This document shows, piece after piece, positions 3,226-63,044 of a stretch of DNA of 63,044 bases (its first letter is position 1; each line of letters opens with the position of its first letter). Made by a program: the position numbers and the translations under genes. The notes below the pieces were generated by a model. The model was not told the DNA's origin, made no database searches, and was given only the letters and a program-made list of their open reading frames with translations. The stretch is from Psammoneis japonica (Eukaryota): the NCBI GenBank assembly GCA_008632985.1, contig QPGO01000309.1, forward strand, positions 1-63,044. The letters are read 5' to 3'.

Positions 3226-3329
3226 GGGTGTGGGTGTGCGTGTGGGTGTGTGGGTGTGGGTGTGCGCATGTGGGTGGGTGTGCGTGTGTGTTTGCAAACA
3301 TTGACCAGAGCAGCGGCCCATTGAAGACA

Positions 3330-4953: not shown

Positions 4954-4962
4954 ACAGCAGCA

Positions 4963-4992
<30 letters not shown>
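4954..4992 (+). repeat. (CAG)n microsatellite immediately upstream of the LRR gene ATG
   Basis: cagcagcag... run ending at gcATG 4993. Confidence 0.9.
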
Positions 4993-4994
<2 letters not shown>

Positions 4995-19903: not shown

Positions 19904-22900
19904 CAAACATGCAAAGCGGACATTTTTTGCTTGACAACATTTTTGTGACATGCCATCAATTGTGCCATCAAGCTGGCTCGTGCAGGGGTCTGAATGGTCA
20001 GACACAATTTTGTGAGATGTGTCCCAAAACTTTTCCAATGGCTGCCCCCCTGGCCAAATCACGATTTTTTTCTTGTCCCCCCAGCCCCGCCAATGAGAAT
20101 GGTGGCACGCACATGATTTGCAAAGTAGCCGCCATGCTGACTCAACAAGCATGACTCAGTTTCAGTGTGAATTTGTCACAGGTGTGCCACAGCCAGAAAC
20201 AGTGGAAACCACCATGCCATGGCGACTCTGCAGTTGCCATTTTCTCAATGGCGGCATCATGACCTTCAACAGCGACAACTGTCAACAGCATGTTGTGCAT
20301 CACATGAACCCATGTGTGGGTGGGAAAATCAATGTGGGACAGTGCAGCGGGCTTGTTGTCGACTCATGCGGTTGAGAAGCAAAAGGGAAAAAATTGAAAA
20401 TTTCAGCTCCTTTCTCTGCAAGCATCAGATTTCAAACCACAGCGAGGCTCGCACATGTGACACGAATCATGATTCATCAGAACATGCAAGTGTCTTGCTG
20501 AGATTGTGGTTGTTGATGGAGCACATTGAGTTTGCTGCCACCGCTGTTGTTGTGTTTCGACAAGTCAAGAAAAAAATTAAAATGCCCAACATTCGTCATG
20601 CTTGAAGATGTGCAACTCACCACAGGTTCTTCACATTAAACAGCTCATCATGTGCAGAGCACACACACATTGTTTGCCTCACAAAATGTGGCAGACAGAC
20701 AGTGCACTTGTGTTTTTTGCTGTGCATGACGTGCATTGATGACTTGACACAAACATTGGGCTTGCCACCAGAAAAAAAGCAAATCAACATCCAGCCCAAA
20801 AAAAAACAGGTGGGCTCACAAAAAAAGCCCTGCACTTCCATTTTGATCTTTGGGCCATCTAACCCAATGATCTTGGGCTCAAATGACTTTGACACTTTTG
20901 GTGCAGCCATGCACAAGCTGGCCATGAGTCCCACATGGCAGCAGAGTTTCAGATGGGTCAAAGGACACCAGGGTGCAGGACCATTTCACACCCCAAATGT
21001 TGGTGGGTGGGCCTGGCTCCACAGTGTTTAGATGGAAAACTTGGCCAAAGCAAGGCAGCAAGGAAAAGCCAAAGGCCATGAAAATGACCACTGCTCCCGG
21101 TTGCCCTCAAGACAAAATGAAGCCAGTGGCTGCATGCGGCGTGCAACAGAAAGCATCAGAAAAAATTGCTGCACAAGTGGGGAACATGGCCCCAGCTGTG
21201 GGGGCTGAAAGAATCATGCTGCAAAGGCAGGAGATGCCACAACCTTGGCTTGGAGAAATTGGCATCAAGCAGAGCTGCAAGAATGCAGTGTGCCTCCCTC
21301 AAATTGTTCTGCATTGTTTGACACATGCTGCTTCAACCTGGTCATTTGTTTTGCGTGTGAATTCAGCCAAAGTGGATGGCAATTAAAAGTCATTGTGCAG
21401 TTGTTGTTTTTGCCAGCAATCACAGCATGTTCTCCACTGGCTGTCTGGAGCTGCAACTCAGAAATTGTGGCCCAGCATGCAGTCAAGAGCTGAGGAAAAA
21501 CAGAGGAGTCATGTCAGGCCAACACTTGGATGTGGCATTTTCCAGATGTCAGGAATGTTTCCTGGCACACCAGGTCTCAGCACACAACTGTCATTGTGGC
21601 ATTGTGTGCTGGCACCAGGTGCAGTCATTTCTGATGCCAGGGTGGATCCCCCAGTTGCTGACATTTCAAGTCATTTGTTGCCATGATTCGGTTCTTTGAG
21701 CAACAGTTGGTTGAGATGGATGATGATGTCACAATGGCTGCCAATGTCAGGAAGCACTGACAACATTCAAAAAGTTTCAGTCACAGAACAACAGCCACAA
21801 CACTCCATGAAAATGAGAGCACTCAAGTGTGTGAAGCGATTGGAGCACAGTCTGCAGCAGGTCAACATTTTGCAGCAATGCTGTGCTGCGGTGTGCTGTC
21901 AGAAGCAAGGGTCAGCCAGCACCAACGTTGCTGGGCAAAGGTGTTGACAGCACTCACAAACCAAATTTGTTTTGTTCTGCATTGGGTTGACAACCCACTT
22001 CCATGTGAACATGCAGATGATGTCAGAAACAAGCAGGCGTGGTGAAGGGCTGCAGCTCACTTAAATCTTGGCAAGTTGGGGCCACAAGAGACTGCCCCAT
22101 TTGACTTGAAAACAAGCTGGTTCCACCATGATCTCTCATCACATCAAAAAATTGTTGCCTGTTCTTTGCAGCGGCTGACACTTTCTTGTCATGAGGCTGG
22201 AAGTCTCACAAACTTTTTCAAGCTTCTTTTTGGCCAGAGTCAATGAAGAACAATTGCCCAATGTGGGCAAGATGTGCAAAAGACATTGTTTTTGAGACAT
22301 GGCTTGCTTCTTGAGACCATTTTGTTCCACTTCTTGTTGTGTCAGCAGCAACACAGCTGGCAGTGTGGTGCTGCAATGCTTGGTGTTGTGGCTGCAGTTG
22401 GTGTGCAGTCAAATTGCTCTCTTTGTGGTCTTCCATTCCTGGCATTGTTTGTCCCTGTTTCAACCCTTAAAAAGCATCAACAAGAAAGAAATGATGTGCT
22501 CTGCATCGTGGGAGAAGCTTGCAGCTCATCCTCGTCATGAAAATCATCTGGAGAGGTTGCTGAGCTCACATGTGTGCACTGCGTTGCAGTGCACTGTCTG
22601 CCCCACATTTGGAAGAGTGGTGGTGCCAAACAGAAAAGGATTGGCACCTTGTGTTGGCTTGCCTCCCTGGCCATGGCTGGCAAAATCCAACTGACCAAGC
22701 TTGGCAACCAAGCTTGCTGTGAAAAGCGAGTCAAAATGCGCCAGCACTTGCAGAACATGTGAGCGCAGCTCTTCTGGCCAACCAGCCATGTGTCCTGCAA
22801 GGGCTTGGTGAGCAGGTGCCCAAGAAGTTCCTTGCAGTGCTGGTTGGAAGCCAGTGTCATCAAACTCCATCAGGGCAAACTGGCCCTGGCGAGATTTTCA

Positions 22901-23621
22901 ACAACAGCGCAGCTGGTTGGGTGCATGAAAACCCAGCCCAGCAGCTGCATCTGATCTTTGCTGGTGGCGCAAGGTGCGCAACAGTGTGCGACAACTGTCA
23001 GCAGCCAGAAATGACAAGATGCTGCTGCAACCCAGCCATGCAATGTGGCTGGGCCATGCCTTGGCTGCCCTTGAAGGGGGGGGCATGAAGCTTTTGTTCA
23101 TTGCCTCGGCATGCTGATCTTGGTGTGGGGCCCTTGCTGCAGAGGTGTGCAGCGGCATTGGCAGCTCAGAGTGGCTGGCACTTCAAGCTGGAAGCGCTGG
23201 CACCTGCTGCGGCACAGGCACAATGTTGGTGTTGGGCGGGGCTGCTGCCTGGTCTGGATCATTGCTCTGCCCTCGTTGAGCTGCCGTGGTTGTTGTTGTG
23301 GCGGTGCACTGTTCACTGTCCTCGCCACAAGTCTTCTTCTTGGGAGCACGACACAGCAGCTCTTGGTTTGCTCTTCGAGAGAATGAGAGCGATGAAACTC
23401 CACAGAACAGCAGCCGTTGTTCCTGTGCTCGCGCAAGCTCGTTCAAATTGTTTGTTTGCGGTGACGATGACCCTGACAACGGCCGGAGGGTGGGTCATTT
23501 CGACTCGTGACTCGCTCGTCGAATCATTCCACGAGGTGGATGAGTGATGCGGTGATGGGTGATGGCGAATGGCAAAATGTGACCCTGCCAAAAAGAGGGG
23601 TGATTAGATTGGCCAATCATC

Positions 23622-33569: not shown

Positions 33570-35079
33570 GGAGATACTTGTATAGGCGAGTTTGTCCGAC
33601 GAGACTTGGGAATTGGCTTCGTGAGATTGTCTGTAGAACACGATTAGAGTTGTGAGAAACACAAGAGTGCAACGAGAATGATGGTGCAATTGCGCAATGT
33701 GCGTTGGACTTACGCATTCTTGTTTTTACCACCAATATATGTTATGCCAAGAGTCTATTCGGTCTACTCTTGGCGATGATTGTTTGCTGTAGCTTGTGTA
33801 AACTAATCATTTAGGAATGGCCGTAGAGAAACATCTATTCGTTGCTAGCCATGGCCGTTCAGTCCGCGCACAGTGCATGGTGCATGACGTTAGGACATGC
33901 CCACGATGTGAGGTTGATAAGGATAACGTTGTACCGTACCAGAGTGAAACAACGAGTCCTGGGGGTGACGTACAGTATCAAGCGCCTGCTGAAATGAGAG
34001 GGGAAGCAACAAGCAATTTCAAATTGGGGTGTTGGAAAACGAAAAGAAAATACTAGAGTAGGTGTTGCATCAAGTGACGGGCGACTTACCGACGTTGTGG
34101 GTACCACTGGTAGAGCAATACAGTACTTTGTGGTGTGACCGTGTGTGGGTTTTATTTAGTTTTGTAAACTTCTACAGCACAACAGATGAAATGTCGAGAT
34201 ACCTGTAGCTCAATACCGTCTGAATCCCATTTACTTTTTCGGCAAACTCGTGCGCAAAGGCAGATGATGTATGGTTTATTCCAATGAATCGATGGGATCA
34301 CGATGCAGAGCCACCAGTAGCAAAAATGCTTTCTTTGTCACTCATAATCTCCTGTTTTTAAACTTATCGAGCATTCGAATCAAAGCTTCTCGGTACGTAG
34401 TAGTCCTCTGGTAATTATTTATTGCCATTAGTGACAATGTGTGCATGGACACACAAGGAGGAAGTGGTGACTTTCTCCTTTCTCCGTGCTGTAAGGATTT
34501 CTCAAAGCAACAAGAATTATGCTGTAACAAAGGACACGGCCATAAAAAGAGAGAAGCATACAAACAGTATCAGACGTTAGGAACGGGGATTGTGAAAGAC
34601 GTGCCAGGATCATGTGCAGCGCGGCAGGATCACGCATTGTGGCAGTGCGATTTGAAAAAATCAAGTGCATTGGAAAACGCCATGATGATAAAAAGAAAAT
34701 ACATACCTTCATACCTCAATCCAGTTGCAAGGCTCTAAGTTGTGCTTCACCATCTTTGCAACAACCACATCATCAACTGACTGTGCAGCGATCAGCGATG
34801 CACACCTGCACATCTTCAACCTGCCGAGTTAAAAAATGAGCGGAGTTTGCACGACGGGTCGCCAGTTGGCGATCGGCATGTTGTGTCGTCACGCGCGACG
34901 AAAATCAACGGTTTGCAAAGTTTCCGATGACGTAGGCAGGTACAGCTGCTAAGCGCTAAACGCGCGACATATCAGGGATACGTAGAATTGTACGTGGAAA
35001 ATTACAGAAGCCATTTTAAAACACCACAAAACAACTCCATATAATCAAAATTTCTCCTTATTGTCTGTTGTCTCGGCAA

Positions 35080-37630
35080 AGGCTCGCCCAAGATGACCCG
35101 CTATGGCGCAGTGGTAACGCATTTCACTTGTAATGAAAAGATCCCCAGTTCAATCCTGGGTGGCGGCTTCCTTTTTCTCTTTTTCTCATTTTTCGCTGCA
35201 ATGAAAAGATCCACAGTTCAATCCTGGGTGGCGGCTTCTTTTTTCCTTTTTCACACACATCCTGATGGCCTGCTTCTGTGTGAAAATTGTGAGCACAGGG
35301 TGGCTGTGCACACAAGAGCCTTGACAAAGGTTCTTTCTGGCAGCTGTTCAACAAGAGCGACACATGTGAACCTGCCTTTCCTCACAGCCCCACTTCAGTT
35401 TTGGCTCTCTTTTTTTGCTGCACTCCCAGTTCAACCCTGGTTGGCTGCTCTTTTTTTTCACAAGCTTTGCCCTTTGTTCCCAAAGTGTTTCGGCTTGTTG
35501 CCATTGTCCCCCGGCTTGGCGCAGCGGCAACGCGTTTCACTTGCAATGAAAAGATCCCCAGTTCAATCCTGGGAGTCGGCTCTCTTTTTGAATTTTTTTG
35601 ATCTTGCACGAGCTTTGTTTCACATGCAATGAAAAGGTCCCCAGTCCAATCCTGAATGGCGGCTTGTTTTGGCTGTTTGTTTTCTGCAGTGGTGGTGCAC
35701 TTCACTTGTGATGAAAAGATCCCCAGCTCAACACTGGGTGTCAGATTTTTTTGTTGCTGCTTTGCCCTTTTTCTTCCCTGAAGTGCTGCTGCTCTTTGTT
35801 GTTGTCTTGTGCTGGGATTTCCCCCTCTCTCTCAAAGTGTGCTTTGCTTGCAATGAAAAGATCACTGGCAGCTCAGCCCTGAAAAGTGCTTTCCTTGCAG
35901 TGAAAAAAGAGAGAGCTCAGAGCTCCACATCCTCACCATGCAACAAAAAACACTTGGCTGTGCCGCCTCTTTGCCCGCACCTCTGTTTTTTTGGTTCAGC
36001 CCTGGAAAGTGCACCCTGTTGGCTTCTTCTTGCAGAGAGCCAAGAGAACTCAGCTCCATCAAAAGTGAGCCAGAAGGCTTGCTGAGATGACACCCGCCAC
36101 ACGGCGCAGTGGTGACGCGCTTCACTTGTGATGAAAAGATCCCCAGTTCAATCCTGGGTGGCGGCTTCCTTTTTCCCTTTTTCTCATTTTTCGCTGCAAT
36201 GAAAAGATCCCCAGTTCAGTCCTGGGAGTCGGCTCTTTTTTTTGGTTTTTGCAACTTCACTTGCAATGAAAAGTGCACAGCTCAACCCTGGGTGAGGGCT
36301 TTTCTTTTAGCCTTTTTCACCCCCATCCCCAGTTCAAACCTGGGTGGCGGCTTCTTTTTTCTTTTTTCAAACACGTTCTTGTGGCACCTGCTGCCATTTG
36401 AAACTTCTGAGCACAGGCTTGCTGTGCACACAAGAGCCTTTTGAAAAAGTTCTTCCGCGCAGCTCTCTGCAACAAGAAAAAACATGTGAGCCTGCCTTTC
36501 CTCAAAGCCCTGTCTCAGTTTTGACTTGGTGTTGGCTCTCTTTTTTTGCTGCACCCCCAGTTCAATCGTGGTTGGCTGCTCTTTGTTTTTTACAAGCTCC
36601 GCACTTTGCTCCCAAAGCACTTGCAATGAAAAGATCCCCAGTTCAATCCTGGGAGTCGGCTGTCTTTTTTGGTTTTTGCAACTTCACTTGCAATGAAAAG
36701 TGCACAGTTCAACCCTGGGTGAGGGCTTTTCTTTTAGCCTTTTTCACCCACATCCTCATCATGCAACAAAAAACACATGGGCATGTCGCCTCTCTGCCCG
36801 CACCTCTGTTTTTTTTTCTCAGCCCTGGAAAGTGCATTCTCCTGTTGGCTGCTTCTTGCACACAGCCAAGAGAACTCAGCTTCATCAGAAGTGGGCCAGA
36901 AGGCTCACCAAGATGACCCCCATTGTGGCGCAGTGACAACGCATTTCACTGGCAATGAAAAGATCCCCAGTTCAATCCTGGGCGACGGCTTCCTTTTTCT
37001 CTTTTTCTCTTTCAGCCGTTTTCTCACACATTCTCATCATGCAACAAAGCCGCACCTCTGTCTTTTTGGCTCAGCCCTGGAAAGTGCACCCTGTTGGCTT
37101 CTTGCAAAGAGCCAAGAGAACTCAGCTCCATCAGAAGTGGGCCAGAAGGCTTGCCAAGATGTCCCCAGTTATGGCGCAGTGGTGGCGCATTTCACTTGCA
37201 ATGAAAAGATCCCCAGTTCAATCCTGGGAGTCGGCTCTCTTTTTTTGGTTTTTGCAACTTCACTTGCAATGAAAAGTGCACAGTTCAACCCTGGGTGAGG
37301 GCTTTTCTTTCAGCCTTTTTCACACACATCCTCATCATGCAACAAAAAACACATGGGTGTGCCACCTCTCTGCCCTTGCCTCTGTTTTTTTTTTGCTCAG
37401 CCCTGGAAAGCGCACCCTGCTGGCTTCTTGCAAAGAGCCAAGAGAACTCAGCTCCATCAGAAGTGGGCTTGAAGGCTTGCCAAGATGACCCCCATCATGG
37501 CGCAGTGGCAACGCATTTCACTTGCGACAAAAAGATCCTCAGTTCAATCCTGGGCGACGGCTTCCTTTTTCTGTTGTTCTCATTTTTTTGCTGTGTTGAA
37601 AAGATTCCCAGCTCAACAGGTGTTGGCTTC
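35080..37630 (+). repeat. Tandem array of decayed tRNA-Thr(UGU) copies and 3'-half copies
   Basis: Near-full copies at ~35510, 35686, 36093, 36916, 37161 and 37488. Many halves start at the anticodon arm. Shared leader aaggct..ccaagatgaccc. Confidence 0.9.
35097..35168 (+). tRNA. tRNA-Thr(UGU), best-preserved copy; C1:C72 mismatch, so possibly non-functional
   Basis: Cloverleaf: D arm gcgc-agtggta-acgc, anticodon arm tttca-cttgtaa-tgaaa (TGT 35129-35131), T arm cccag-ttcaatc-ctggg, followed by a T-run. Confidence 0.8.
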
Positions 37631-40600
37631 TTTTGTTTGTTTTGCTTTTTTGCACAAGCTCTGTTCAAAGCAGCACTGCTGGCGGCACTTTTGGAAAGGT
37701 CTTCATCATGGAGAATGCCTTTGTTGTGCATGCAGTGTTTTTCTCTTCTTGAAAAGCTCTTGCGGTGACAGCGGGGGACTTTCCCTCTTTGACACAACTT
37801 GCTGGGGGCAGTCTCTTTGCAACAAAATGGCCACCCTGCTTGTGGCAGGCTGAGAAATGAGAGCTTGCCTGGGTGAAAACCTTGGCTGACAACAAAAGTG
37901 CTTTGAGCTGCCGGGTGGCTCAACCACAAAAAGGGTGTTTTTGATTTTTTTCTTTTGTTGCTTTTTGCACAAGTTTTGCCTCTTTGTTCAAAGTGGCTCT
38001 TCCCCCTCTCACTCAATGTGCTCTGCTGCTGTGCCCAAAACTTGAGATGTTGTCAGGAAGCACGAGTCTGTCAAGGATTTGAAAAACAACAAACTTTGTT
38101 GCTTTGCTGGGTTTGGAAGCTGCTGCTCCCCAGACTTCTCCCCAACAACAGCTCAGCTTGCTTTTTGTTTGATGTTGGTGGTGCAGCTGCAGTGCCCCCA
38201 GCATCACACCTTGTTGTTCATTGTGAAATGACTTGGCACATCTGCTGAACACCAGCAGCAGCAAGCCTGGCTTGTTGCTTGTCAGCCACCAGCTCTTTTG
38301 CTGGTCATGAAAAAATTTGATGCACCAACTGAGCTGCCAAGGGGCGGCCACCACCACACACTCAGCCCAAATGCTGTGTGCAAGCAGGGCATCAAGCCGC
38401 CACTGGCAAAACACAATTGCTGGGCACCAGGGGTGTGTGACACAAATCATTGGGGACAGACAGGCCATGCACCTTTGGCTCTGTGCAAGGGCTGAGTTTT
38501 TACAGGTGCTCTTCTGAAGCAAAATGTTGCTGTTGAAGGAACCTTTGGAAACCTTGCATGCGCAGAGCTGGCTGCAGGAATGAGACAAAAACATGGTGCA
38601 CTTTTTTGTTGTCCAGGCTGGGGGGGGGGGGGCAACAGCTGCACATGTCCACAAAGATGCCACACCAAAAGATCTGCCAAGTGAAGCAGCACAAAGCAAA
38701 GGAAGAACAAACTTTGTCATTGAGTCAGCCATGTCAACATTGCCCATGTTGTGTGGCTCTGGTTTTGCCCTGCGCATGAGCCCTTGCAGCTCACATTTGT
38801 GACCACACCACACCACACCACAAAAAGAAAAACATGTTGATTCACTGTGCTCTGCACACAAGGCAGGTCACAGAAAAGAGTGGCAAACATTGTCACTGCT
38901 TTTGCCTTTGCCATTGCTCTGGGTGGCGCTCATTGTTTTCAAGTTTGTGGCTCCAGACAACCTGCTTCATTCATGCACACATGAGGTGTGTTGAATGGAA
39001 GAAAAAGCATGACTTTTCAATCTGCCACATTTTTGTCAGCCTTGTGTGGCTGTGCTTTTGCCCCTTGGATTTGGCTGCTGCAGACACTGCACAGCTTGCA
39101 TTTGTGTGACTGCACAATGCATGACAAAAGAACAAGTGCAACAATCTGCACACCTGGTTTTCTGTGCACAACCTGTCACACTCTTTTGTTTCATTTTGTC
39201 TTTGCACACTGCAGATCAAAGTGTTGCTCACCACATTGACAGGTGCTGTCATTGTTTGACTGAAGCCATCACAAAAGCTGATTTTCACATTTGGCATGTG
39301 TGGCTCTGCATGTCCTGGCACAATGCTGAAGGTGTGGAGGTGTGTGAGAGGAAAGGTGCGGGGAATTGACAATGCATGATTTGGCTTGGACAGGGCCAGC
39401 TCTGGTTGAGTTTGGGTTTGACATGATGCATGGCCAGCAACATGACCCTCTTGAAGACAGGAAAAGCAGGTGGTGGCTCAGTGGGGTCACAACATTGCAA
39501 AATGTCACAACAACGAGCAATGAGAAGAAAGCCAACTTGACCCAGAAATGAAGTGCGCAGGATGTCATCCAATTGCTTTGATCTCATCATCTCACATTCT
39601 GGCCAGCAGGTCAACTGGCGCCACTTGCATTGCTTGCCATGGTGTGCTGTTGGACTGTCATGCTGTTGTTTCTGCATGACAAAGATGGGATCCATTTTCC
39701 TGACAGTGGCTCTGTTTTGTGACAGCAGTTGTTTTGCTGCATTCAATCTGAAGACATTTTGAGAAGCACTTTGGGGCAACCCTGTTTGGACCATTGAACA
39801 AAAGTTTTTTGAACACAGACTCACTCCATCTTAAGTTCTTTTGGGTGTTCTGCAACATTTGAGAGCAGATGTGTGCAGTTGTCAGAAGCATGAGAGAAAG
39901 TTGAGTGACACTTGGAAGCCTGAGGAACAGACATGAGTTTGCGTGTTCCCTGTGGAGCCTGCAGATCTCCATGCACACTCTGCTTGTTGTGCCTCACACA
40001 TGCACTCAGGAGCTCATGCTTCCCACTGAAGAGCACAGCAAAAGGCAGCAATCCTGGGGAATTTTGGGGAATCCCATGGCAAAACCAAACTGAGCTGCTG
40101 TGGTGATCATGAGCTGGAGCAGGGTGCCAAAACACTCTGGGCTGAGAGCGGTCATGCACCATTGGGGGCATGCCATGGTGACCTTTGTTGCTGCTGAGAT
40201 TGGCGGGAGGTGCTCTGACACACAAACATCATTTTGGAAGGAAGTTTTGGAAACCTTGCATGGGCAGCTGGGGGATGAGAAAAAACAAGGCATGCCATGA
40301 TGCTGGCCAGGTGCAGAGGATGAGTGCAGTGGCCACGGAGAGGACATGCCAAATGCACAAAACCAGATCCACACATGGCAGCACTGCTGCAGTTGCAGGC
40401 AACAATTTGCCCTTGGAAGCAAAAAAAAAAAGGACAGGGTCAGACTTGACAGACAACAGCAGCTTTGTGAGTGACTTGTGGCAAAGAGAAGGGGGACATG
40501 ACAAACCAAGATGATGACAAAAAAAAAACACCCAGAGCAGCAAAACAATGGCAGCCACTGGAGTTGACTCTGTCAAGGTGATTTTTTTCTTTTTCATCTG

Positions 40601-42320
40601 TTTTGTGCAAGTTGCAACACAACAGCATGCTGGCCACATTGTCCCCACACAACCTCTCTGCTTGTGCTGCCTGGCATGAAAATCTCTGGAGATCATGTGA
40701 GCTGGTGGCACAACAGGCCCGCCCCATGTGCCATCATGGCTGCCTTGTTCTTTGCATCTTTTCCCACACCAACACACTGCCTGCTGCCCAGAGATTGAAG
40801 TTCATTTTTTGCAGAATTAAAACCAGTGTCAGCGCAGGAGAAAAGCCCACTGCAGGTGAAGAAATTGAGCTGTTTTTTTCTGATTTTGGCTGTGAAAAGA
40901 GCTTGAATGTTGACTGCAGTCAATTGCAACAGTCAATTGTGATTGTGACCTCAGCTCTTTCCTGACAATCAGGTGATTGCAATCAAGTTTGCAACAGCGT
41001 GATTGCAGTCAAAGTGAGGTTGATTGCAGTCAATCCTGGCAATTGGTTGACACTGATTGAAGCTCACTTGGTGCAGATGGACAGACAGATTGTCATTTCT
41101 CTTGGCACTGGACAGCACAATTTCTCTGCGCATTTTTTTGCAATGACTCCACAGCACAAAAGTCAGCTGTTGTCATGACAATCATGACTGCATGTGAGCG
41201 CGCGAGCACTGAGCTTTGCACTCTCTCGTGCCACAGCAAGTCTGCGACCATGATGGCCAGAACAGACACATTCCAAACCGTCAAAACAAGCACAATGTGA
41301 AACAAACATCATGCAATTGTTGCTTCTTTCTCCTTTGTGTGGGCCAACCAACCAAGACCACTCAACTCTCAAAAAAGAAAATGGTGGTGGGCACTGGAGA
41401 GGAGCCTCTCTTGAAAAGACAATCCATGAAGTCACGGCAGACATGCAAACAACAACAACAACAACAATGCCCGTGGAACAGCCAGCATCACAATGATGGG
41501 CCTTCTTTCACATCATGTTGTTGTTTTGCAATCAGTTGCCCCAGCAAGTGAGAATGTGGAACAAATGGGTTCTGCTTTGGTCAAAAACTGAAATGACAAA
41601 AGGTGGCTGCCAACAGAGCACGCCCAAGAAAACAAAGCATGAATTGCATCTGTTGTTGTTTGCATCCTCTTGCAATCAAAAAAGAGAGAGAGAATGCACC
41701 ACCACACGCAACTGCACAATCATGTCTGTCTTGTTTCAAAGTCAATTGTCGCCACCACGGAGACGACTCCCAACAAATGATGACGACGTGTGGACAGCAA
41801 GGTTGTCACTGTGCGTGCATTTTGTGGATGTGCAACATTGTTTCCAGGCTGTGTTTTCCATCACTTGCAAAAAAAGGCAATTGTCATGGTGTCATGACCA
41901 CAACAACAATGGCAACAAAAGATGGGGCATGTCCTGTCTGTGTTGCACCATGACATGCTGCCAAGAAAATGAGGCATTTGTTGATGGTTTTCTCTGGTGT
42001 TGTGGGTTGGCATCTTGGCCATTTTTGTAGGATTTGACATGCTCTGCCCAACAAACAAGAGCAGTTTGGGGAATGTGTTGTCCAAGATTTTTGGATGTCC
42101 CCAATGCTGGGACGCGACGACCGTCATTGTGCTCCAGATTGTGCACTTTGTCTGTGCCAAAGAAAACACAGTGCTGCATGGTGACAGATGGGACCTGGCT
42201 GGTTGTGGACAATGTGAAGGAGAAACATTTGAAGAAGCAAGAGCAGGCTCAAGCTGCCATCATGGTCCGTCAAAAGGAATGGAACAGCAAAACCGAACAC
42301 ACTGTTGAGCTAGAGAGTGA
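35140..42320. other. TpA-depleted domain 5 (tRNA array plus unidentifiable decayed sequence)
   Basis: TA loss; internal paralogy between ~38530-38600 and ~40230-40300. Confidence 0.8.
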
Positions 42321-42862: not shown

Positions 42863-45370
42863 TTAAGAGCAGCTCAAGGTTTTACTCGATTGTACCAGGT
42901 CATTGGTGATATGCATCAAATCAAGGAATTCTTGTTTCCCGTAGGCACACAGCTCCACCTTCTTGAGTTCATCGTATCCGGGAAACGCGGAAATTGTTTC
43001 AAGCGCAATGCGCAAGATCTTGGACAAATTCCCGCCAGAACGGTTTCCAGCGCTAATCAAGGATATTCCAATAGCTTCAAGTTTCTTTTCTTTGGCACAC
43101 TCGAGACTAGACTTGTATGCTTCTCGAAGCAACTTGTCCTTACGTTCCAAAGATTCGTGATTGTCGTCCGTCGCATAGGTTGGTCCCACGGCAAAGATTA
43201 CGAATGCCACATTTAAATCCCCAAACGTCGTACCTGATTCTCTTGTGGGAGGGCCAATGACTTTTGCTTCACCGGTAGGGCATCGGACGTCGCCCCAGTT
43301 GTTCCTTTCCACTGGCTCGAGATGCTGGACTTTTTGCCGAAAGTCCGACCCACCCTTGTCTTCCACAGCCCTTGCAACAGATTCCTCGCACGTGCGACGG
43401 CAGGATTCATTGGTGGCGCAGACAATGGCCGCCGTGCGGTCCTTGTCGGACTTGAAATCCAAGACCGAAGAATGGCTCACCGACAATGTAAAGGGTCTAC
43501 TACCACTGCCCGTAGGAGTAACAATAAATTCTCGTGGAGGCAGTGGACAATCACCTGGTGAATTATGCAAGCGAGTGACTTGTTCTTCCTCGCGTCTTTT
43601 CTCGTCCTCTCGATTCTCATATCTCTGTAGCTCTGCCTCCTCTTCTTTCTTGATTTTTTTAGTCAGATTGTCAACCTGAGTTTGAAGGCTTATCGCTTCA
43701 TGGGGATTTTCGGAGGAAGCCATTTCTCTCTGCAGCTCGCGCTTCTTTGCCTTTAGGTCGTCCCGGTGAGGCAGCACCTCCCGGAGCTTTTCCAATTCTG
43801 CTCTTCTCGTCCTGTGCATTGCAGCTTGTCCCGGATCTTGATGGCGATTTGCACATTGGAACTCTTTTTCTGCTCGGTCAATGTCCAATTCTAACTGGTA
43901 TCGAGATTCGTAACCGCCGTTGATGAGCTTGTCAAAATCCTCTTCTGTAATATCGGCTTTATTGCGAATGTCGACTGGATTTCCGGCTCCAATACTTGCG
44001 AAAATATCGGACGAGCGTTTAGTCATGAGATCATTGGCCCTTGTTGCAGCTGCATATTCTGGAAGGACGAGAAAGTCGGCGAGTCGTCGTGGCGTAAAAA
44101 GCGAACGGCCCAATCCTTCGTTTACCCAACGGCACTCGACACCAAATAATTTGACAGAGGCTTCCATATCCAAGGGTTTTACATCCAGGCGGTCAAAGCG
44201 GGGTTTCTCACAATCCATTCCTTGCCCTTGGCCTGAATGATTAATGAGAACGATATGGGCATTTTGGGATTCAACAAGGTCCAGCGTCTTGAGAAAGTAA
44301 AACAACTTGTCAATGGATTTGGTATCAACGAGGCTTTTCTTGGGACAGGAACAATCAATGAAAATGAGTGATGAAACGCCATGAAGGCTCTCAGCCGTCC
44401 GCTCGCAGAGCGACACAAACTCATTGGAGTTTAAAGTGGTTTCACCAGAAAGAACGGCTTCCATAACTTGATGGAGACCACCCATGACTTGATCGCCATC
44501 ATGATTGTGGCCACGCGATGGCAGCCAAAAGACTTCTTCGAATTGTGGGAAATCATCACGTCGCTTCTTGATATATGCACACACAGCTTCTGCCAAGGTT
44601 GTCTTCCCGACACCCGGCCTTCCAGTAATCTGAACAAAGTGATATTTCAGAAGTCTGTATATGACTTGGTACATACTTTGTTCCCGACCGAAGAATTCTC
44701 TCGGATAGGAGGGCAGTATCCTCGCGGCTGGTTTGTCACAAAACTTAAACACACTGTCATGACGGTCACTTTGTTCCGGCAGAAGAACAAAGTTGGAGTT
44801 CTCGATGCCATGCTTGGCTACGTTGAAGGCTTCAATCACAGTCGACGTGCCGGTTGCAAGCATGGCGTAGAATACCCGAGTAAATTCGAGAGCGTCATCT
44901 GCCCAAAGCTTTCCTTTGCAGCAAATAACATGAGGAATCTTGACATTTTCAAATGCCTTTCCGGCTTCTAGAGAAGAACACGCCGACAGGAAAACTAGTT
45001 TTAAGCCACCAACTCCGTACATTTCGAGCATATCCTTTAGCTGAGGAATGTACAACGGATCCATGGCCCCACGACTTTCCAATGCAAGGTAATAGTCACA
45101 AGCATGACCAGAGAAATGTAAGATTCCGCTATCGTCCGCCTTGAGGATTTCTTCAAGTCGATTCTTCGTGGCCGTTTCATACACCACATTGTTAAAGGGT
45201 TTGCTCCCCTGGAACAAGTCCAGAAAAAGTGCTCTTTCTCGTTCATGATCCGGTGGCAAACCAAATTTCTCAAATATCTGACCTCGCATCTGGACTAGCG
45301 GTTGTGATTGTGAGACCACCATTCGGTTGATGGTAGTCTCCTCTCCGCCCATGCTCGACTGCGTAGCCAT
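42863..45370 (-). CDS. CHAT (caspase-like) protease - STAND/NB-ARC-like P-loop NTPase - coiled coil - Macro domain protein, 835 aa
   Basis: ILHFSGH and LVFLSAC (His/Cys dyad). FFGRE..ITGRPGVGKTTLA Walker A. Macro motifs AIVCATNE, TGEAKVI, VIFAVGP, AYKSSLECAKE, ISLISAG. Confidence 0.9.
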   Translation of the reverse strand: MATQSSMGGEETTINRMVVSQSQPLVQMRGQIFEKFGLPPDHERERALFLDLFQGSKPFNNVVYETATKNRLEEILKADDSGILHFSGHACDYYLALESRGAMDPLYIPQLKDMLEMYGVGGLKLVFLSACSSLEAGKAFENVKIPHVICCKGKLWADDALEFTRVFYAMLATGTSTVIEAFNVAKHGIENSNFVLLPEQSDRHDSVFKFCDKPAARILPSYPREFFGREQSMYQVIYRLLKYHFVQITGRPGVGKTTLAEAVCAYIKKRRDDFPQFEEVFWLPSRGHNHDGDQVMGGLHQVMEAVLSGETTLNSNEFVSLCERTAESLHGVSSLIFIDCSCPKKSLVDTKSIDKLFYFLKTLDLVESQNAHIVLINHSGQGQGMDCEKPRFDRLDVKPLDMEASVKLFGVECRWVNEGLGRSLFTPRRLADFLVLPEYAAATRANDLMTKRSSDIFASIGAGNPVDIRNKADITEEDFDKLINGGYESRYQLELDIDRAEKEFQCANRHQDPGQAAMHRTRRAELEKLREVLPHRDDLKAKKRELQREMASSENPHEAISLQTQVDNLTKKIKKEEEAELQRYENREDEKRREEEQVTRLHNSPGDCPLPPREFIVTPTGSGSRPFTLSVSHSSVLDFKSDKDRTAAIVCATNESCRRTCEESVARAVEDKGGSDFRQKVQHLEPVERNNWGDVRCPTGEAKVIGPPTRESGTTFGDLNVAFVIFAVGPTYATDDNHESLERKDKLLREAYKSSLECAKEKKLEAIGISLISAGNRSGGNLSKILRIALETISAFPGYDELKKVELCAYGKQEFLDLMHITNDLVQSSKTLSCS

Positions 45371-45889
45371 TTTCTGAGACGTGAATTGGCTTATTTTGTC
45401 CGCCTGCTTAAAAAAAGAAATGGTCTAGGTTTTGATTAATACCGATTGATCTTTACGTCATTCAAGGCAGAGTCAACGTTGTCTCACCGTTTATTGTGCC
45501 AGGTTCAGCCAGATGGAGTTCCGCCTGAAGCTTCCGGTTTCGTGCTTGAAGTTGTTCCTGCGGAGAAATCCGTATCGTTTCTACGAGTACTCTTGCGTGC
45601 GGAGTTAGATCAGGTCGCCCGAATAAGCAGGGAACGCAGAAAATGCAGATCGGAAGTATTGTGGAATTATGCCACCCCATGTGGCGTGGGCGATGTTGTT
45701 CAGATACGCCCGACTAGAATTTCAATCGAGGCATGACTGACGCAATAGTCTCAGACATACAAATTCTACATACGATTGAAACATGTATAAAGATACCACG
45801 TTGAACTCAATACGTGTCTAACATACAACGGCCATGCGTATGGTTTCATATGTTGACGCACTCCAGCCAATCAGCACGCTGTCTGTAGA

Positions 45890-48800
45890 GCAGAATGCAC
45901 TGCCTTTCCCAGCTGTCGCGCGTTTCGCACCTTAACTCATTCGTGCGTCGTCAATGGAGCAATTGTCTCTCCAGCAGAGAGCACGCCGACTGCCACAGCG
46001 TCTGCACATTTTCACACATTGATGCACTGAGCCCCTCCAACCAATCAGAGTGTTGTCAGCAGAGAAGAGCCAAAAACTCCCTTTTGGATGCAGAGAAGAA
46101 GAGGCTCCTCGGTGTTTTTTGTTCTCTCACAAAAGCGAGGCCCCCTTTCCCAGTTTGTGTCGCCGTGTGTTTGTTGGCACATGCCTTTTCTGTCATTCAA
46201 GCATCTTGATGATGGAGCAACAGAGCAGCTGTCTCTTGAGCAGAGAGTGCAACTCACCAGAGAAGAGAGCTGGTGTGCCGCCAATCTGACAACACTCTGC
46301 TGCTGTGGAGAGATGGCTTGGTTGACAGCATTTCAGTGCACTCCCACTCTTCATCAACTGGCACATTGTTTTGAGCAGGGTGTGGTGAGAGCCCTCGCCA
46401 GTGCATCTGCTGTGTTGTGTTGATTTGAGCCTGGCACAAACAAGAGCCACACATGAGGATGTTTGCATCGACGTGGCATGTGAAGATCAACTGCAGTGAC
46501 GCGTTCCAGCCCTGGGTGGGAGCTCGCAGCACTGACGTGTGACACAAACAATTTTTGTCATCCGTTGCATGTTTCGCACATAGATTTCTACGTGTGACAT
46601 TAAAAAAAAATTGTCCAGACTCGCTGTTTTGCGCAGCCCCAGATGTTTTGTTTGACGAATTTGCAGAAACGACAATGCACCAGTTGCATTCTTCAATGTC
46701 TGAAGAATGTAGATGGCCAAGTAAAAAATGGTGCACTTCAATCATGGGCGAGTTTGTGCATTCGCAAAATTGCCTCATTTTCTGTTGGCAATCATTGACA
46801 TTTAAATTGCCCGACAATTTCAATGCAGAGCTCGCACGAAGAAGTCTGCGGGCCCAATGTCACACGGATTCCCACCTGCGTCTGGAACGCGTCCAGTGGT
46901 GTCTTTTTATCCCAGGGTGAGAAATAATTTGTGGACAAATTGCTCAGTTTTCTGCATGTTTCTGCACCTGACACACACTCAGCATCAAACCCACAGTGCA
47001 AAAAATTGAGATCTGACAAGAAACAGCCCTGACGCATGCTTGGAGAATGTGGAACTTCCAATCAGCAAAACACTGACCAAGAAAGCAGCTGACAACGAGG
47101 GTGTTGAGGCAAAGGGCAAGGAAGATTCCAAGTCAAACGCAGTCTGTTTCACTTGGAATCAACCAGCACCAGGTCGGCCATTTGGTTTGCAAAAAGAGGC
47201 CAAAACCACAAAGAACAAGAGATGCAAAGAGGAGCTTTTGGCTGCTCTTGTTGCAAGTTTTCTTGCTTGGTGTTTTCATGGCAATGCTCTTGGGATGGCC
47301 ACGTCCAACCTCCTTTGAAATTTTGTGTCAATTGTTGGGGGATGACAAACATGTGGACAGACACCAACATTTTGGCAGATGTCATCTTTGAGCTGCCTCT
47401 GGCTGGAGACAGCTGTCAACAACAATGACATCCAGAATTTCAGTCACACTGCAGTGCACATGCAGACATGATTGTGGCATTGGCGTTTGTGCTCCAAAGA
47501 GAGGCACCGCCCAACAACATGTTGTCATGGCAGACCCAACAATTTGGGCTGGAGTGAGTGATTTCAAGATGCACCTGATTCCACTCATTTGTCTTGGGCT
47601 GTTGTCTTTGAAAAAAACAATGGCAACACTGAAAAACTTTTTGCTGGCAACAATGAGGACAGCAGTGCCAAACTGCTGCTGATTTGCCAAAAGCCAAAGA
47701 CAAAACTTCTTCAAAACCACTGCTGCTCAAATGGTGTGGCCATGACCAGCACCATCTTCATGAAATGCAGAGCAAAAAAATCTTTCCCATTCATTGTTGC
47801 ATCGCGCAATGAGTCTTTGTGAAAGTGCTCTGGACTGCACCAAGCAAACAAAGGTGTGGAGAGTTTGTCAGCTGTTGAGATCAAATCCACTTGCTTTGCA
47901 ATTGTGCTGCATTGTGAAGCTGTTGCATCAAGCCATCCATGCAAGCATGATGAAGAAGAAACAGAAGACACAGGTGTGTTTTTGTTTTTCAAGAATGCCA
48001 AGCTTGCAAGGAGAGAATTCAAAGGAGCCAATGTGAGAGCGAAATGCACGACAGCAGGGAGCCATTGATTCTGCCAGAGGAGCACTTGAGGAATGACATG
48101 GCAGGGCCCTTTGTGGCTTCAGTGCAACAAAAAAAATGACTCCACAGCCTGCCTGCATGCCGGCATGTTGCATTCTTGTTGCTCTCTCCCAAGTGAGTGT
48201 CACTGTGTGACTTGGTTGGCTCTTGTTGTCGGGCTCCTTGTGGCATGCCCATGTGTGTCTACACACAGCCCATTTGAGGAATTGCTGCCACCAACAAATG
48301 GGATTTCCAAAAAGGCAACTGTTGTGGAAAATGGCCCCAGAGTGAAGAAACAACCCAAAGGATTGCCTGCTGCCATTGTCTCATTTTGCTCACACACAAG
48401 ACAATGGCGCCATCATTTGATGCAGCGCCAAGACATGAAAAAGCCAAGATGCTGCGCACAAACTGCTGGGTCCTGGCTGTTGTTGCTGTCATTTTCCTGA
48501 CTGTTTTTTCCTGACCATTTGATTGGATGTTGCAAAAAGGGGAAATGCCTGACATGCTTGAGCAGCAAAACAGAGGCCACCCTCCAAAATCTGCTGTGCT
48601 GCACTTGAGGGCACGCCACACCAGCACCACATGTCGTTGCTCTTCTAAATCTGTGATGCTGTTCTTTGATGAGTCCCTTGTGGCACTCCCACGTGTCTGC
48701 ACTCAAATGTGATGGCATTTGAGGTGGCACTGACACATGCCAATGACTCCCACAAAAAAAGGCCCGCCATGACACGCGCCAATGACTCCCACAAAAAGGC

Positions 48801-49430
48801 CCGCCGTTGTCAATGCTGGACAAGGCAAACAGAGAGTTGTCAAGGCCTCTTCTTTGTGTTGCTGCTCACCCACAAGAAATGCACATGGGACAATGGCAAT
48901 GCCACTCTGCACTTGTTGGGCACAAGAATGGATGTGTGCTGCAACACAACAAGCGGCGCAACCCACAAGAGATGAGCAAGCCCAGCTTGTGGACTCTCAA
49001 ATGTGGAGCTCACACATGAGGAGATGAAACCATTCCAACAACAAGGACACACCATCACACACAAAAATGACCACTGCAGGACTTGCTCAAGCCAATTGCA
49101 GCTGCAGTGCTTGGCACTTTTTGGGGTGGATGCACAAGCACAAGCCACACAGCTTGCCCTTTTGCGCAGAGCAGGGAGACGGCACTGCTTCTTGAGAGAG
49201 CTGGAGCACAAAAACAGCAGCTGCTGCTGCTGGACAATGGTCCCCATGATGTGTTGCTGCCACAAGCAGCTGTTGCAGAAGCAGTCCTCTAGAGAGAGTG
49301 AGCCTTTTCCCATCAACTCTAGCCAGGTAGAGTTTCTTGGCTTTGTCGCCATGATGTCGCTGCTGGTCAGCTTTTTGCACCTCCTCATTTCACGAGTTGT
49401 CTGTGTTTGCATCCATGACTGGGTACAAAT
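45890..49430. other. TpA-depleted decayed domain 6 (boundaries approximate)
   Basis: TA loss except inside the MITE. Confidence 0.8.
46498..46893. mobile_element. MITE copy D
   Basis: TIRs gacgcgttccagcctgggtggga / tcccacctgcgtctggaacgcgtc; TSD cagt on both sides. Confidence 0.9.
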
Positions 49431-59149: not shown

Positions 59150-62100
59150 GCCATCATTCTCCTTGTGTGAGAAATGAGACTGCATTGGAATTGTTGGTGC
59201 CACTTGGTGAAAAATGATTTGAAAATTCGGCATTCATCGGGAAACCAATCTCGGCACTGTTGTTTTCTCTCTGCTGGCAGCATCAGCACACAATGCGGAT
59301 GTGATGAATTTCAACCAACTGTGCAAAGAACACATGCAATTGCACATGTGCATGGCTTGCTGTTTTGCAGCATTGATGAACAGAGCAAGCGGCAACAAAC
59401 TGCAATGCCAAAAACAATTTTGGGCAAAATCTCACTCGTCACAAAAACATCCATCAGCAAGTCACCACATCGCAGCAGATGTGAGAGCTGACCAATCAGT
59501 TTCATTTCTTTTTCCGCAACTGATCAATTGCATTCATGACAAAAATGCCCATCAGAAAATCAGTTCCTTGCAGCTGTGAGAGCTGTCATCACCAATCAGC
59601 TTCGTCTCTTTTTCCGCAGCTGATCAACCGCGTTCTTCGTGATTGGGGTGCTGCAAAGCAGATCTGCCGGCACTGCAGTGTGGTGGCTGCTGGCACTCTT
59701 GGCTCTCTGCTGCACTGCTCTCTGGCAGAGCTGGCTCTCTGGTGGCTGGCAGAGAGCAGTGAAACAGACTCCACTGTGTCAGCTGCTCCAAGAAGTGTCC
59801 ATCTGCCTCTGCAGGAGCTGCGACCAGCCAGCCGGTTTGGCAACAAAAAGATGTGCAAGCCAGAATGAGCAACCCACTGCCGCAGTGTTGGCAACACCTC
59901 ATCAACTCCAACAGGAATTCTGTTGTGGTCTCTCTGCAGAAGATGTCCTCTGTCAATCCAATGGCAAATTCTTTGCCACACTGATGGACTTCATTGTCAA
60001 CAGTGCCTTCTGTTGAGCTGCAATCCTCTCACTTGCAGGTGCCATCTTTGGAGCATCCTTCAAAATGCCTTGATGCAACAATTCTTGAGTGTGCCATTGC
60101 CACAAATCTTGGAGTCATTTGTTTGCAACTTGTGCGGTTGACTCGAGATGCTTGTCAAGAGGTCATGGAAGCTGCAAATGCTGGTGTTTTTGAGCACGGC
60201 AGATTCAGTGGCAATTCATGCACAGTGTGGGTGCTGGACTTGGGTCGCCATTCTCTGTCAAACTCTGCTGCATGGTGTGACAGGCTTTGATGGCTGCTCT
60301 GCATTGACATGCCACCCAAACACTCTTTTGTTGAGTGTGTGGGTTGACTGCATGATGAGGAGAGAACAAGGAGAAGCAGGCACTGCTCTCGCTGCTTGTT
60401 GTTGATGTGCCTTGAGCCTGTTGCATTGCGCGCCATGGCACTCTCATTTTCGCACAAAAAAATGCATGTCCTTGTCCATGTGTGCTCTTGGGGTCAGGGT
60501 TGGCTCATGGTGCAGGGCACGGCCATCAAGCATGCTTGCATGCTTGCGGTGTTCAAATGTTGGCTTCCATGCACTTGACAACCTCAGCTGAGCTGGGGTG
60601 TGCAGCTGGGACATGTGGAGACAGCTCTGCTGGCAAGGAAGATGCCCTCTCCCAGTGCTCACCAAGCTGGGAAGCTGGGCCAGAGGGTGGGGACAATCAA
60701 GCTGTCAACATCATCTCTTTTTTCTTCTTTTTTTCTCTTTGGAGCAATTGCCGAAGAGAGTGGAACAGAGCGGACACACGAGCTTGGTTTGGCTTTGCCA
60801 GTGTTTGAGAAATCCTGAAACAAATGGCCAGAGTGAGAGACAGTTGCCTCTGCCTTCTGGGGAACACCCTGGAAATGAGGCCAATTTTGTGGGAGGGAAC
60901 ACCTGAAAGGGCCAAGGGGAGGGGAAAACAAAAAGGAGAAGATTGCGACAATGTGCGGCAATGACATTCGGGTGGGTGTGCTGTTGGTCCCATGCATGCT
61001 CCAGGCCAGCTGGCCATCCATCCCACATGACGGCTTGGAAGTGAACGCACAGTGTGGCTGGCAGTTGGATGGGCAACAGCTGCAAGATGCAGGGTGTGTG
61101 TGGCTGTGCCAAGTGTTGACAAGACAACAAGTGACAGTCACCTCTTCCAGCTCCTGCAGAATGGTGAGAGAGGTGCCTGGAGTTGCCAGCAGATCTCCCC
61201 TCATTTTTTAAGCAGCCCCTGATTTTGCCGGAGCACTGCTCATTGCACAACCTTTTGAAGAGAGTGCCCCAGCCTTGTCATTGACAACAGGGCCTTTGAA
61301 GGCTGGCTTGGCCTCCCCACATGTGACCTCGTCAACAACTTTGTGCCAAGTGCCGAGCACTTTGCAGAGCTTTCTCAATGATGGTGGGTCTCAAACTGCC
61401 CAGCTCTCCAAGAAGCAAGCCACACCCTTCACACCACCTCATGTTGCTTTGGCTTTTCAACACACACAACACAAACAGTGTGTTTGACAAGTTGGCTGTG
61501 GTCGTCACCCAAGCTGTGCAAGCATCTTGCCTCCTTGTGCACAAGCGCCGCACTGTCGCCCTGCTTTGTTGTTTCTGTTTGCCTGCATCCTGGAACTTTG
61601 ACCCCAGTGTTTTTGCCAAGTCAAGTGTGCACATGGCTCTTCAAACCAAATGGTTGGTGCCAGGATTTGGCAGGCTTTCAGCTGGGAAATGCTCCAGTGC
61701 CCTGCAGCAGCTTGGTCATTGTGCACAGCTCTGCACCGTCAACTCTGCTCACATGTTTGCATGATGCATTTTTGCTCTCACACCACACAGCTCACAAGAA
61801 CAGCAGCACTCATTTTGGCACTTGCAATGGCCCCTGGGTGCGGCAACTCATTTGCTGTGTGGGCAGAGAGGAGGGCACAAAGCAGTTGTTTTGTCTGCCA
61901 CATGTGTTCTCCCTGCAGCGTCATCTCACAACAAACCACACATGATGACAGGTGGTGCCGGATGTGCTGTGTGGTGCTTGACCAATGTTGCTCTTGTTCT
62001 TGAGCCTTTTTTGCTGCAACATTTTTCCACACAGATGACAAGGCCAAAAAATCATCTTTGTTCTTGGCAGAGAGAGCAGGCTGGTTCTGTCCCCCCCAGC

Positions 62101-63044
62101 AAAAATGAAGCCTGTCAAGCATGATTTGCCACCTCTTCACAGACTCCTCCTTTGGCTTTGGTTGTTCAAAAATTGCAGCACAAGTGCATGCAAAAAATGT
62201 GGTTTCTTGCAGGTGCCCACCTTGCAGCTTTGGAAAAGCCAAAGTTGCCTGGAGAGGCGCAGCTTTGTTGGCTGGGCAAAAAGGCCAGCACTTTTGAACT
62301 TCTGGCGCCTGTCGTGGCTGCTGGGGCTCTTTCTTTCAGCTTTGTTGCTCTTGGAGCGGCTGTCACTGTGACTTGGTGAAGACTCTTGAAGGATGTTTTC
62401 TTGCTCTTTTGTGTGTGGGAGCGAGCCACTTTTCAAACCCTGCAAAGATCTGGCGCTTGTTCTGTGTCTGCCTTTGTCATGAGACAATGGACACCCAGGT
62501 TGGGCCCATCTTTGGAGCTGCTCTTGGCTGTCTTGACAGCATCAACGAAGCCCATGATGGCACATGGGGTTCAAAGCTGAGCAGCGACGGCCCAACAAGC
62601 CAAAAGTGATTTTCCAGAGCCTTGGCTCAGTTGTTGAGTGCCCTGATGTTCTGGCTGTCAATGCGCATTCGCCACACAAGAATCTGGGCTGCTTGTCTGA
62701 CCATGGGGAGCGTGGGCACAGCGGCACTTCCTTCCATTGCCAAAATGTCCTTGGAAGACTTGCCCACAGAATGATCTGAAGACAATCATGAGGAGTTGGC
62801 AGCTGTTCTTGGCACTCTGTTCTTCTTGAAATCGAACATTGATGAGTGCACGGTGGCGGGCGTCATGAGACAAAAATGCAGTCACAACAACTCATCAGTG
62901 TGCAGCACTCAACAGCATTGACACATCTCCACAATTGCATCAAATCTGTTGACATGCAAGTCTTGCAGTGGCAACACTTTCGACAAATGAGCCTCTACAA
63001 AGGTTGCCGTGTGTCTTCTGGGCGGCTGCTTTCTTGCACGCGGC
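59150..63044. other. TpA-depleted decayed domain 8, running off the window end
   Basis: TA loss; short imperfect repeats accaatcag..ttttccgca.ctgatcaa at ~59490-59630. Confidence 0.8.

Follow-up and report, generated by a model that had tools for sequence, protein, structure and literature searches.

In the SAVED-CHAT protein of a type III-B CRISPR system, described in 10.1101/2023.06.23.546230, a nucleotide sensor is fused to a CHAT protease that is activated by clustering, and its structure (8tl0) is the closest solved CHAT domain to the one presented here. In fungi, NLRs with an N-terminal CHAT domain are reported in PMC12881547 to control gasdermins, a eukaryotic combination of CHAT with an NLR-type NTPase. 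Some Macro domains act as sensors, according to PMC9503650. In type II Thoeris, as set out in bioRxiv 10.64898/2025.12.03.692087, the Macro domain is the receptor for TIR-made His-ADP-ribose (His-ADPR), and in type IV Thoeris, as set out in bioRxiv 10.1101/2024.10.24.620036, a caspase-like protease is activated by N7-cyclic ADP-ribose (N7-cADPR). The stretch of DNA analysed here (the window) comprises 63,044 nucleotides of the diatom Psammoneis japonica (assembly GCA_008632985.1, contig QPGO01000309.1). On its minus strand lies a gene for an 835-residue protein in which a CHAT domain, a shortened STAND-type NTPase, a helical stalk and a Macro domain follow one another. The likely role of this protein is that of a protease under the control of a trigger, in immune or stress signalling. 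The features of the gene, numbered by position in the window, are as follows.

42863..45370, minus strand: single-exon coding sequence of 835 amino acids, with CHAT, truncated STAND (nucleotide-binding domain and helical domain), two UVR-like hairpins and Macro in this order
44744..45343, minus strand: CHAT caspase-like domain, residues 10-209 (Pfam 25.4 bits; Z 23.6 to 8tl0; paralogue profile E 3e-14)
45104..45106, minus strand: His89, predicted catalytic His, the second His of HFSGH (alignment with SAVED-CHAT H375)
44978..44980, minus strand: Cys131, predicted catalytic Cys (alignment with SAVED-CHAT C422)
43907..44725, minus strand: AAA+/STAND nucleotide-binding domain and helical domain, residues 216-488, followed by no winged-helix domain (domain model)
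44600..44623, minus strand: Walker A, GRPGVGKT (residues 250-257)
44354..44368, minus strand: Walker B, LIFID, with Asp339 (Asp in 109/138 aligned rows)
43976..43984, minus strand: STAND GxP motif, Gly463-Pro465 (each in 112/113 aligned rows)
43565..43903, minus strand: two UVR/ClpC-M-like hairpins in a helical stalk (residues 490-602), with Pro513 and Pro556 at their tips
42884..43549, minus strand: Macro domain of MacroD ancestry, residues 608-829 (Pfam, fold and tree)
45404..45487, minus strand: candidate GT-AG intron of 84 nt, situated 5' of the ATG and probably in the 5' untranslated region (from sequence only)

Domain architecture of the predicted protein

The open reading frame (ORF) runs on the minus strand from 45370 to 42863 and contains zero internal stops; the stop-free frame around it spans 853 codons, and the longest such frame in 100 order-2 Markov copies of the window reaches 417. 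A Pfam scan of the 835-residue protein returns CHAT at residues 40-173 (25.4 bits, cut-off 24), nSTAND3 at 231-271 (28.5 bits, cut-off 27.2), which covers the Walker A region only, and Macro at 651-776 (48.9 bits, cut-off 22). The motifs are located at 85-89 (HFSGH), 128-131 (LSAC), 250-257 (GRPGVGKT), 512 (DPGQA), 555 (NPHEA) and 651 (CATNESC). The full-length AlphaFold model, built from a 45-sequence input, reaches a predicted local distance difference test score (pLDDT) of 85.4 and a predicted template-modelling score (pTM) of 0.68.

The modelled residues 10-209 superpose on SAVED-CHAT 8tl0 with a Z of 23.6 and a root-mean-square deviation (rmsd) of 2.2 over 189 aligned residues. A profile made from seven CHAT domains matches the same structure at E 3e-14, with His89 and Cys131 paired with the second His of HFIGHG and with the Cys; the dyad positions aligned in 8tl0 stand at a constant offset of 20 from the published H375/C422. 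An earlier, sequence-only reading of this stretch had called a CHAT protease with an intact caspase-like dyad: the domain call is upheld by the Pfam match above cut-off and the predicted fold, and the dyad by the presence of HFSGH and LSAC and the alignment of His89 and Cys131 with their SAVED-CHAT counterparts. The protein is probably an active protease.

In the NTPase, residues 216-488 modelled separately (pLDDT 88.8, pTM 0.87) align to the nucleotide-binding and helical domains of Apaf-1 (116-347), ZAR1 (150-388), PH0952 (105-307) and Avs5. The Walker A motif that had been pointed out beforehand is GRPGVGKT at 250-257. The domain is assigned to STAND because of its GxP motif (112/113 rows) and its 31% identity over 281 residues to a CHAT-STAND-TPR protein of Holophagales. 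A STAND NOD module is defined in PMC6468293 by a nucleotide-binding domain, a helical domain and a winged-helix domain. In the predicted model the winged-helix domain is absent: the helical domain is followed directly by four long helices, the stretch from 397 to 613 contains no strand (pLDDT 71-97 over 481-600), and the alignment to PH0952 stops at residue 307 of that protein, short of its winged-helix domain (317-393). The arm domain is also absent from the model, and the Pfam scan of the protein finds no repeat family. As modelled, the NTPase is a truncated STAND in which Walker A, Walker B and GxP are kept and the winged-helix and arm are missing. The previous description as STAND-like therefore stands for the nucleotide-binding domain, the helical domain and GxP, but does not extend to the winged-helix or arm. 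With a NOD lacking both, canonical NLR autoinhibition cannot apply.

Beyond the helical domain, the stalk family profile matches residues 408-473 of the ClpC M-domain, with an E of 2.8e-5 over the full chain and 16.2 bits within this segment, and in the profile alignment the conserved tip aromatic of the family falls on ClpC F436, a residue described in PMC5699869 as needed for the repressed, head-to-head state. Pfam UVR (PF02151) gives zero hits on the 835-residue protein, the hairpins are present in the model, and 2 of 60 scanned relatives exceed the UVR cut-off; at the level of the family, the UVR-like coiled coil proposed from the letters alone is thereby supported. Elsewhere in the genome, long ORFs at G000:C102:141799-142500 and C40:3213-3872 match the UVR-hairpin region alone, two times each, and represent other UVR-repeat proteins.

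The Macro model (residues 608-829) superposes on MacroD 5l9k with a Z of 23.9 and an rmsd of 2.2 over 188 aligned residues, and YmdB is the closest solved structure to the Macro family profile (E 2e-24). Fold and Pfam score, the latter more than 26 bits above its cut-off of 22, agree with the initial Macro call. MacroD hydrolases are characterised in PMC6500376 by the signatures Nx(6)GG[VLI]D and G[VIA][YF]G, and N92 of MacroD2 is given there as both catalytic and ribose-contacting. Here, the sequence of loop 1 is NESCRRTCEESVA and that of loop 2 is SAGNRS, and neither signature is present: the Gly-Gly and Asp of loop 1 and the aromatic of loop 2 are lost, and Asn654 is kept. The loop-2 G[VIA][YF] motif occurs in 0/37 NTPase-fused Macro domains versus 12/17 stand-alone ones, a distribution that bears out the original remark on an altered, non-hydrolytic glycine-rich loop, and Asn654, at the position of MacroD2 N92, is retained in 37/37 fused domains. 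The balance tips slightly towards a predicted binding of an ADP-ribose-type ligand.

Compared with two paralogues, Macro is the most conserved domain, with 53% identity (CHAT 38-41%, NTPase 40-41%, hairpins 27-31%), and synonymous sites are near saturation (pS 0.74; pN 0.40-0.42). Given this identity, as against about 40% for CHAT and NTPase, and the near saturation of synonymous sites, the Macro domain is not decaying. It descends from a stand-alone MacroD subfamily of diatoms that is also present in the same genome (C24). In the Macro tree, which holds 59 of 61 domains after two partial rows were dropped, 36 fused and 15 hydrolase-type domains lie on opposite sides of one branch (100/99), and 8 rows belong to neither group; this sequence-based pattern fits one fusion followed by loss of catalysis. 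Disarmed Macro domains of the fused type also occur without the NTPase in library proteins P0060, P0107, P0070 and P0113, one of them joined to an HSF-type DNA-binding domain.

Family, paralogues and genomic setting

An exhaustive profile search returned 1462 clusters at E<=0.001, and the family counts are taken from the best 150. CHAT and NTPase occur together in 121 of these 150, and 25 of the 121 carry Macro as well. Among 30 clusters looked up, the organisms named are the diatoms Nitzschia sp., Stauroneis constricta, Pseudo-nitzschia pungens, Pseudictyota dubia and Cylindrotheca fusiformis, plus one distant relative, a Gefionella protein. Transcriptome sets are the source of several of these named proteins, which shows that relatives carry the Macro fusion on a single transcript. 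The tails of the relatives consist of one to three Macro domains, WWE, kinase-like, LanC-like, DUF6824 or unstructured segments, or are missing; two or three Macro copies are found in P0007 and P0005, and WWE in P0076. Their heads hold LRR, kinase or IQ domains, with the LRRs N-terminal in many. A word-index homologue search with the single protein gave 0 matches, and with alignments 21 and 15, mostly LRR-driven or distant CHAT. By its sequences, this is a large diatom family of CHAT-STAND proteins with swappable tails, comprising predicted active and dyad-less members.

In the core tree (52 rows picked from 126), the gene groups with C67, C32, the kinase-tailed copy of C169 and P0002 (Shimodaira-Hasegawa-like approximate likelihood-ratio test, SH-aLRT, 100), and the presence of Macro requires 3 changes. 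The dyad and the Walker A K[ST] are both kept in 5/5 members of this clade. In the neighbouring LRR-Macro clade, each is retained in 3/22. That 22-member clade (library proteins P0009-P0081, transcriptome records) is a conserved group of diatom LRR-CHAT-NTPase-UVR-Macro proteins in which dyad, Walker A and Macro loops are mostly degenerate, apparently a triple pseudoenzyme. Its orthologue was not found in this genome by a lower-bound search, in which the best matches (26-30% identity) are the known paralogues.

Genome-wide scans, which cover the 91-Mb eukaryotic assembly, place Macro-type tails at 7 loci. Two of these, C310 and C67, are intact. The other five are broken, C32 by a single stop, C19 and two copies at C169 by changes of frame, while C42 is present in fragments; these breaks may reflect assembly error. 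At G000:C169:111000-125500, three paralogues stand in tandem, one intact with a kinase-like tail and two Macro-tailed with frame changes. In the kinase-like tail, GLG replaces DFG and the DFG Asp is gone.

The gene itself sits in an island of about 4 kb with normal composition, flanked by CpG- and TpA-depleted blocks. Its CpG observed-to-expected ratio (o/e) of 0.96 and the TpA o/e of 0.39-0.65 in its 1-kb bins rule out an ORF created by TpA erosion. In window 1-3500, 11000-13500, 19500-23000, 35000-42000, 46500-49000 and 59500-63000, CpG o/e is mostly 0.1-0.4, TpA o/e 0.00-0.1 and TpG/CpA near 1.9. As TpA loss strips TAA and TAG stops, long ORFs within such eroded blocks are probably artefacts. 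Bacterial contamination is ruled out by diatom silicon-transporter genes in the genome (up to 697 bits) and by the relatives with an organism name, which are diatoms; at G000:C38:226311-230342, one 1511-codon open frame holds three silicon-transporter matches.

The gene had been read as intronless, which is correct for the coding frame and may need amending for the transcript, where the candidate 84-nt GT-AG intron (45487-45404) lies just 5' of the ATG. Because the frame that splices in phase has a TAA right before the donor, this intron probably belongs to the 5' untranslated region. An upstream coding exon is ruled out, the sole strong donor (45487) being in phase 1 and the strong acceptors in phase 0; the N-termini of relatives, searched by tblastn upstream of the gene, give zero matches. 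Further upstream, the non-coding window 45722-45959 is 80% identical to G000:C17:484057-484294, where a related ORF is absent.

The nearest TIR gene lies about 33 kb from the CHAT-Macro gene, and linkage means little in a eukaryote. On the plus strand, window 7829-9961 holds a 710-residue TIR-Kelch-TIR ORF, both TIR domains of which have Glu in a CVKEL motif; we take this Glu to be the NADase catalytic position. The predicted protein is a possible source of NAD-derived signals. Directly upstream of it are LRR_6-rich ORFs (window 4615-5964 and about 6990-7700, plus strand).

Proposed mechanism and competing explanations

The best reading of the gene, to which we give slightly less than an even chance, is a clustering-activated caspase-like protease whose Macro domain would read, and not cut, an ADP-ribose-type mark. 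In the resting state, the CHAT domain would be inactive, being unclustered. The Macro domain, borne on the stalk, would bind an ADP-ribosylated protein, poly-ADP-ribose or a TIR-made derivative. This binding would cluster the modules formed by the nucleotide-binding and helical domains. These modules, which lack the usual winged-helix latch, would oligomerise, and the UVR hairpins would provide a tunable contact as in ClpC. Once together, the CHAT domains would cleave a target in immune or stress-death signalling. Control of the protease by Macro ligand binding is somewhat less likely than not. In the genome, 31/32 TIR_2 matches and 5/5 PARP matches are over the cut-off, and these genes are circumstantial candidates for signal sources. 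The fullest version, a one-protein diatom receptor in which a disarmed Macro senses an ADP-ribose signal made by TIR or PARP proteins and triggers the caspase-like protease via a winged-helix-less STAND with ClpC-type arms, is rather doubtful.

Several observations weigh against a Macro-gated protease, the switch that the sequence-only reading had proposed with ADP-ribose or a related nucleotide as its signal. Across the family, 96/121 relatives with the CHAT-NTPase core have no Macro, and this core evidently works without it, as far as the sequences indicate. The dyad is kept in 89/93 scorable Macro-less relatives versus 7/24 Macro-bearing ones, which amounts to a negative correlation between Macro and protease activity within the family. 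Members of the LRR-Macro clade retain the Macro although most of them probably have no protease left for it to control, the dyad being present in only 3/22. The sequence-only reading had also placed Macro in the slot where NLR-like proteins carry sensor repeats; this placement is weakened by these same counts, by the NOD without winged-helix or arm and by the N-terminal position of the LRRs in relatives. Within the Macro domain, bulky residues replace the loop-1 glycines, together with a two-residue insertion, and Ser635 occupies the adenine-binding Asp position, where stand-alone relatives also have Ser; given the altered loop 1 and this Ser, the pocket may not bind ADP-ribose. The fold of the NTPase is a tie among STAND, ClpC and Orc1/Cdc6 at Z 10-11.6, which means that fold alone cannot single out STAND. 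At the hairpin tips, Pro513 and Pro556 take the place of the family aromatic, which is present in 81/93 and 79/88 rows, and this copy is the most divergent member of its clade. No candidate substrate gene was recognised adjoining the gene, in the ORF list of the window and in Pfam scans of 12 longer ORFs.

The altered ligand loops also fit an integrated bait or protein-interaction tail, in line with the concept of integrated domains in plant NLRs (PMC12915092). Here the Macro domain would be a nucleotide-blind, disarmed copy of a host enzyme, and binding of a pathogen or partner would trip the protease. The same slot holds the kinase-like domain with GLG for DFG in the sister paralogue of C169, other relatives have LanC-like, WWE and DUF6824 tails, and the source of Macro is the diatoms' own stand-alone MacroD subfamily. 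However, Asn654 is conserved in all 37 fused copies, tandem Macro and WWE tails suggest an ADP-ribose theme, and no diatom pathogen effector was identified; we consider this explanation unlikely.

The loss of the dyad and of the Walker A K[ST], each in 19/22 members of the LRR-Macro clade, together with breaks in 5/7 Macro-type loci of the genome, gives some room to a scaffold or regulator without proteolytic activity, or a paralogue on its way to becoming one, which would keep its folds and modulate active members, as the dyad-less clade probably does. The gene shows signs in this direction: Ala90 follows the catalytic His89, where 121/127 aligned rows have Gly, both tips carry Pro, and its branch is the longest in its clade (1.05). 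Yet Ala after His is found in three other aligned rows, each with both dyad residues, and His89, Cys131, Lys256-Thr257, Asp339 and GxP are all retained despite about 60% paralogue divergence. With the gene, in addition, in an island of normal composition outside the eroded blocks, such a role is quite unlikely.

A protease with a housekeeping or developmental task outside immunity, in the cell cycle, the wall or the sexual stage, is improbable: the long ARM/LRR-CHAT-NTPase branch has short terminal branches, which suggest a conserved role, but the clade of the gene is fast-evolving, tandemly duplicated, tail-swapping and often broken. Fast evolution, tandem duplication, tail swapping and breakage form a pattern typical of conflict genes. 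A Macro that is still a hydrolase, with a changed mechanism, removing the signal as feedback instead of reading it, is very improbable, since the kept Asn654 and the strong conservation of the domain are set against the loss of both MacroD signatures as given in PMC6500376 and a loop-2 motif in 0/37 fused versus 12/17 stand-alone domains.

Comparison with known systems

The bacterial CHAT-STAND-TPR protein of Holophagales (P0134) resembles the diatom protein in its N-terminal CHAT with dyad, to which a P-loop STAND with GxP is directly joined (31% identity over 281 residues, pairwise E 2e-32). Unlike the diatom protein, it runs about 430 residues past GxP and ends in TPRs, whereas in the diatom protein the helical domain leads to the UVR-like hairpins and Macro. 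SAVED-CHAT differs in that, as described in 10.1101/2023.06.23.546230, its N-terminal SAVED binds cA3, it has no NTPase, and it is operon-linked to its substrate PCaspase. The fungal CHAT-NLRs have repeat sensors and lie in gasdermin-gene clusters in the account of PMC12881547, while the diatom copy has no winged-helix, no repeats and no recognised adjacent substrate. Bacterial EACC2-caspase proteins, presented in PMC8195603, likewise join an invariant caspase module to a C-terminal domain that varies (Macro, kinase or STAND), but they contain the EACC2 domain, and in that account Macro and STAND are alternative tails, not placed in series with UVR arms.

In ClpC, D1 and the M-domain offer a similar succession of an AAA+ module and a UVR-type coiled coil (PMC5699869). 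ClpC is, in the same source, a two-ring unfoldase, whereas the sequence of the diatom NTPase is that of a STAND-like module, and Pro occupies both hairpin tips of this copy. MacroD and YmdB hydrolases share fold and ancestry with the diatom Macro, which is fused and has lost the Gly-Gly and Asp of loop 1 as well as the aromatic residue of loop 2. Thoeris types II and IV, in the sources cited above, are distinct bacterial systems that contain neither a STAND nor a fusion of Macro to caspase, and the PADLOC Thoeris models give zero matches to the protein. A brown-algal NB-ARC study (PMC3341825), searched for these terms, makes no mention of caspase or Macro. In the literature searched, the CHAT-STAND-UVR-Macro architecture was not found, although the source-data files of PMC8195603 and similar surveys could list it, and no NLR-type receptor with a protease is described in diatoms.

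If Macro does gate the protease, a major group of phytoplankton would have a link between NAD-derived signalling and caspase-like proteolysis, and a receptor for a TIR or PARP signal would combine, in a eukaryote, the principles of Thoeris types II and IV. A STAND without the winged-helix latch but with ClpC-type arms would represent a new way of regulating such switches, and the mix of active and dyad-less members in the family provides natural controls. In conclusion, the protein is a variant of the CHAT-STAND conflict proteins, akin to the bacterial and fungal ones, and is neither a canonical NLR/STAND protein nor a MacroD hydrolase.

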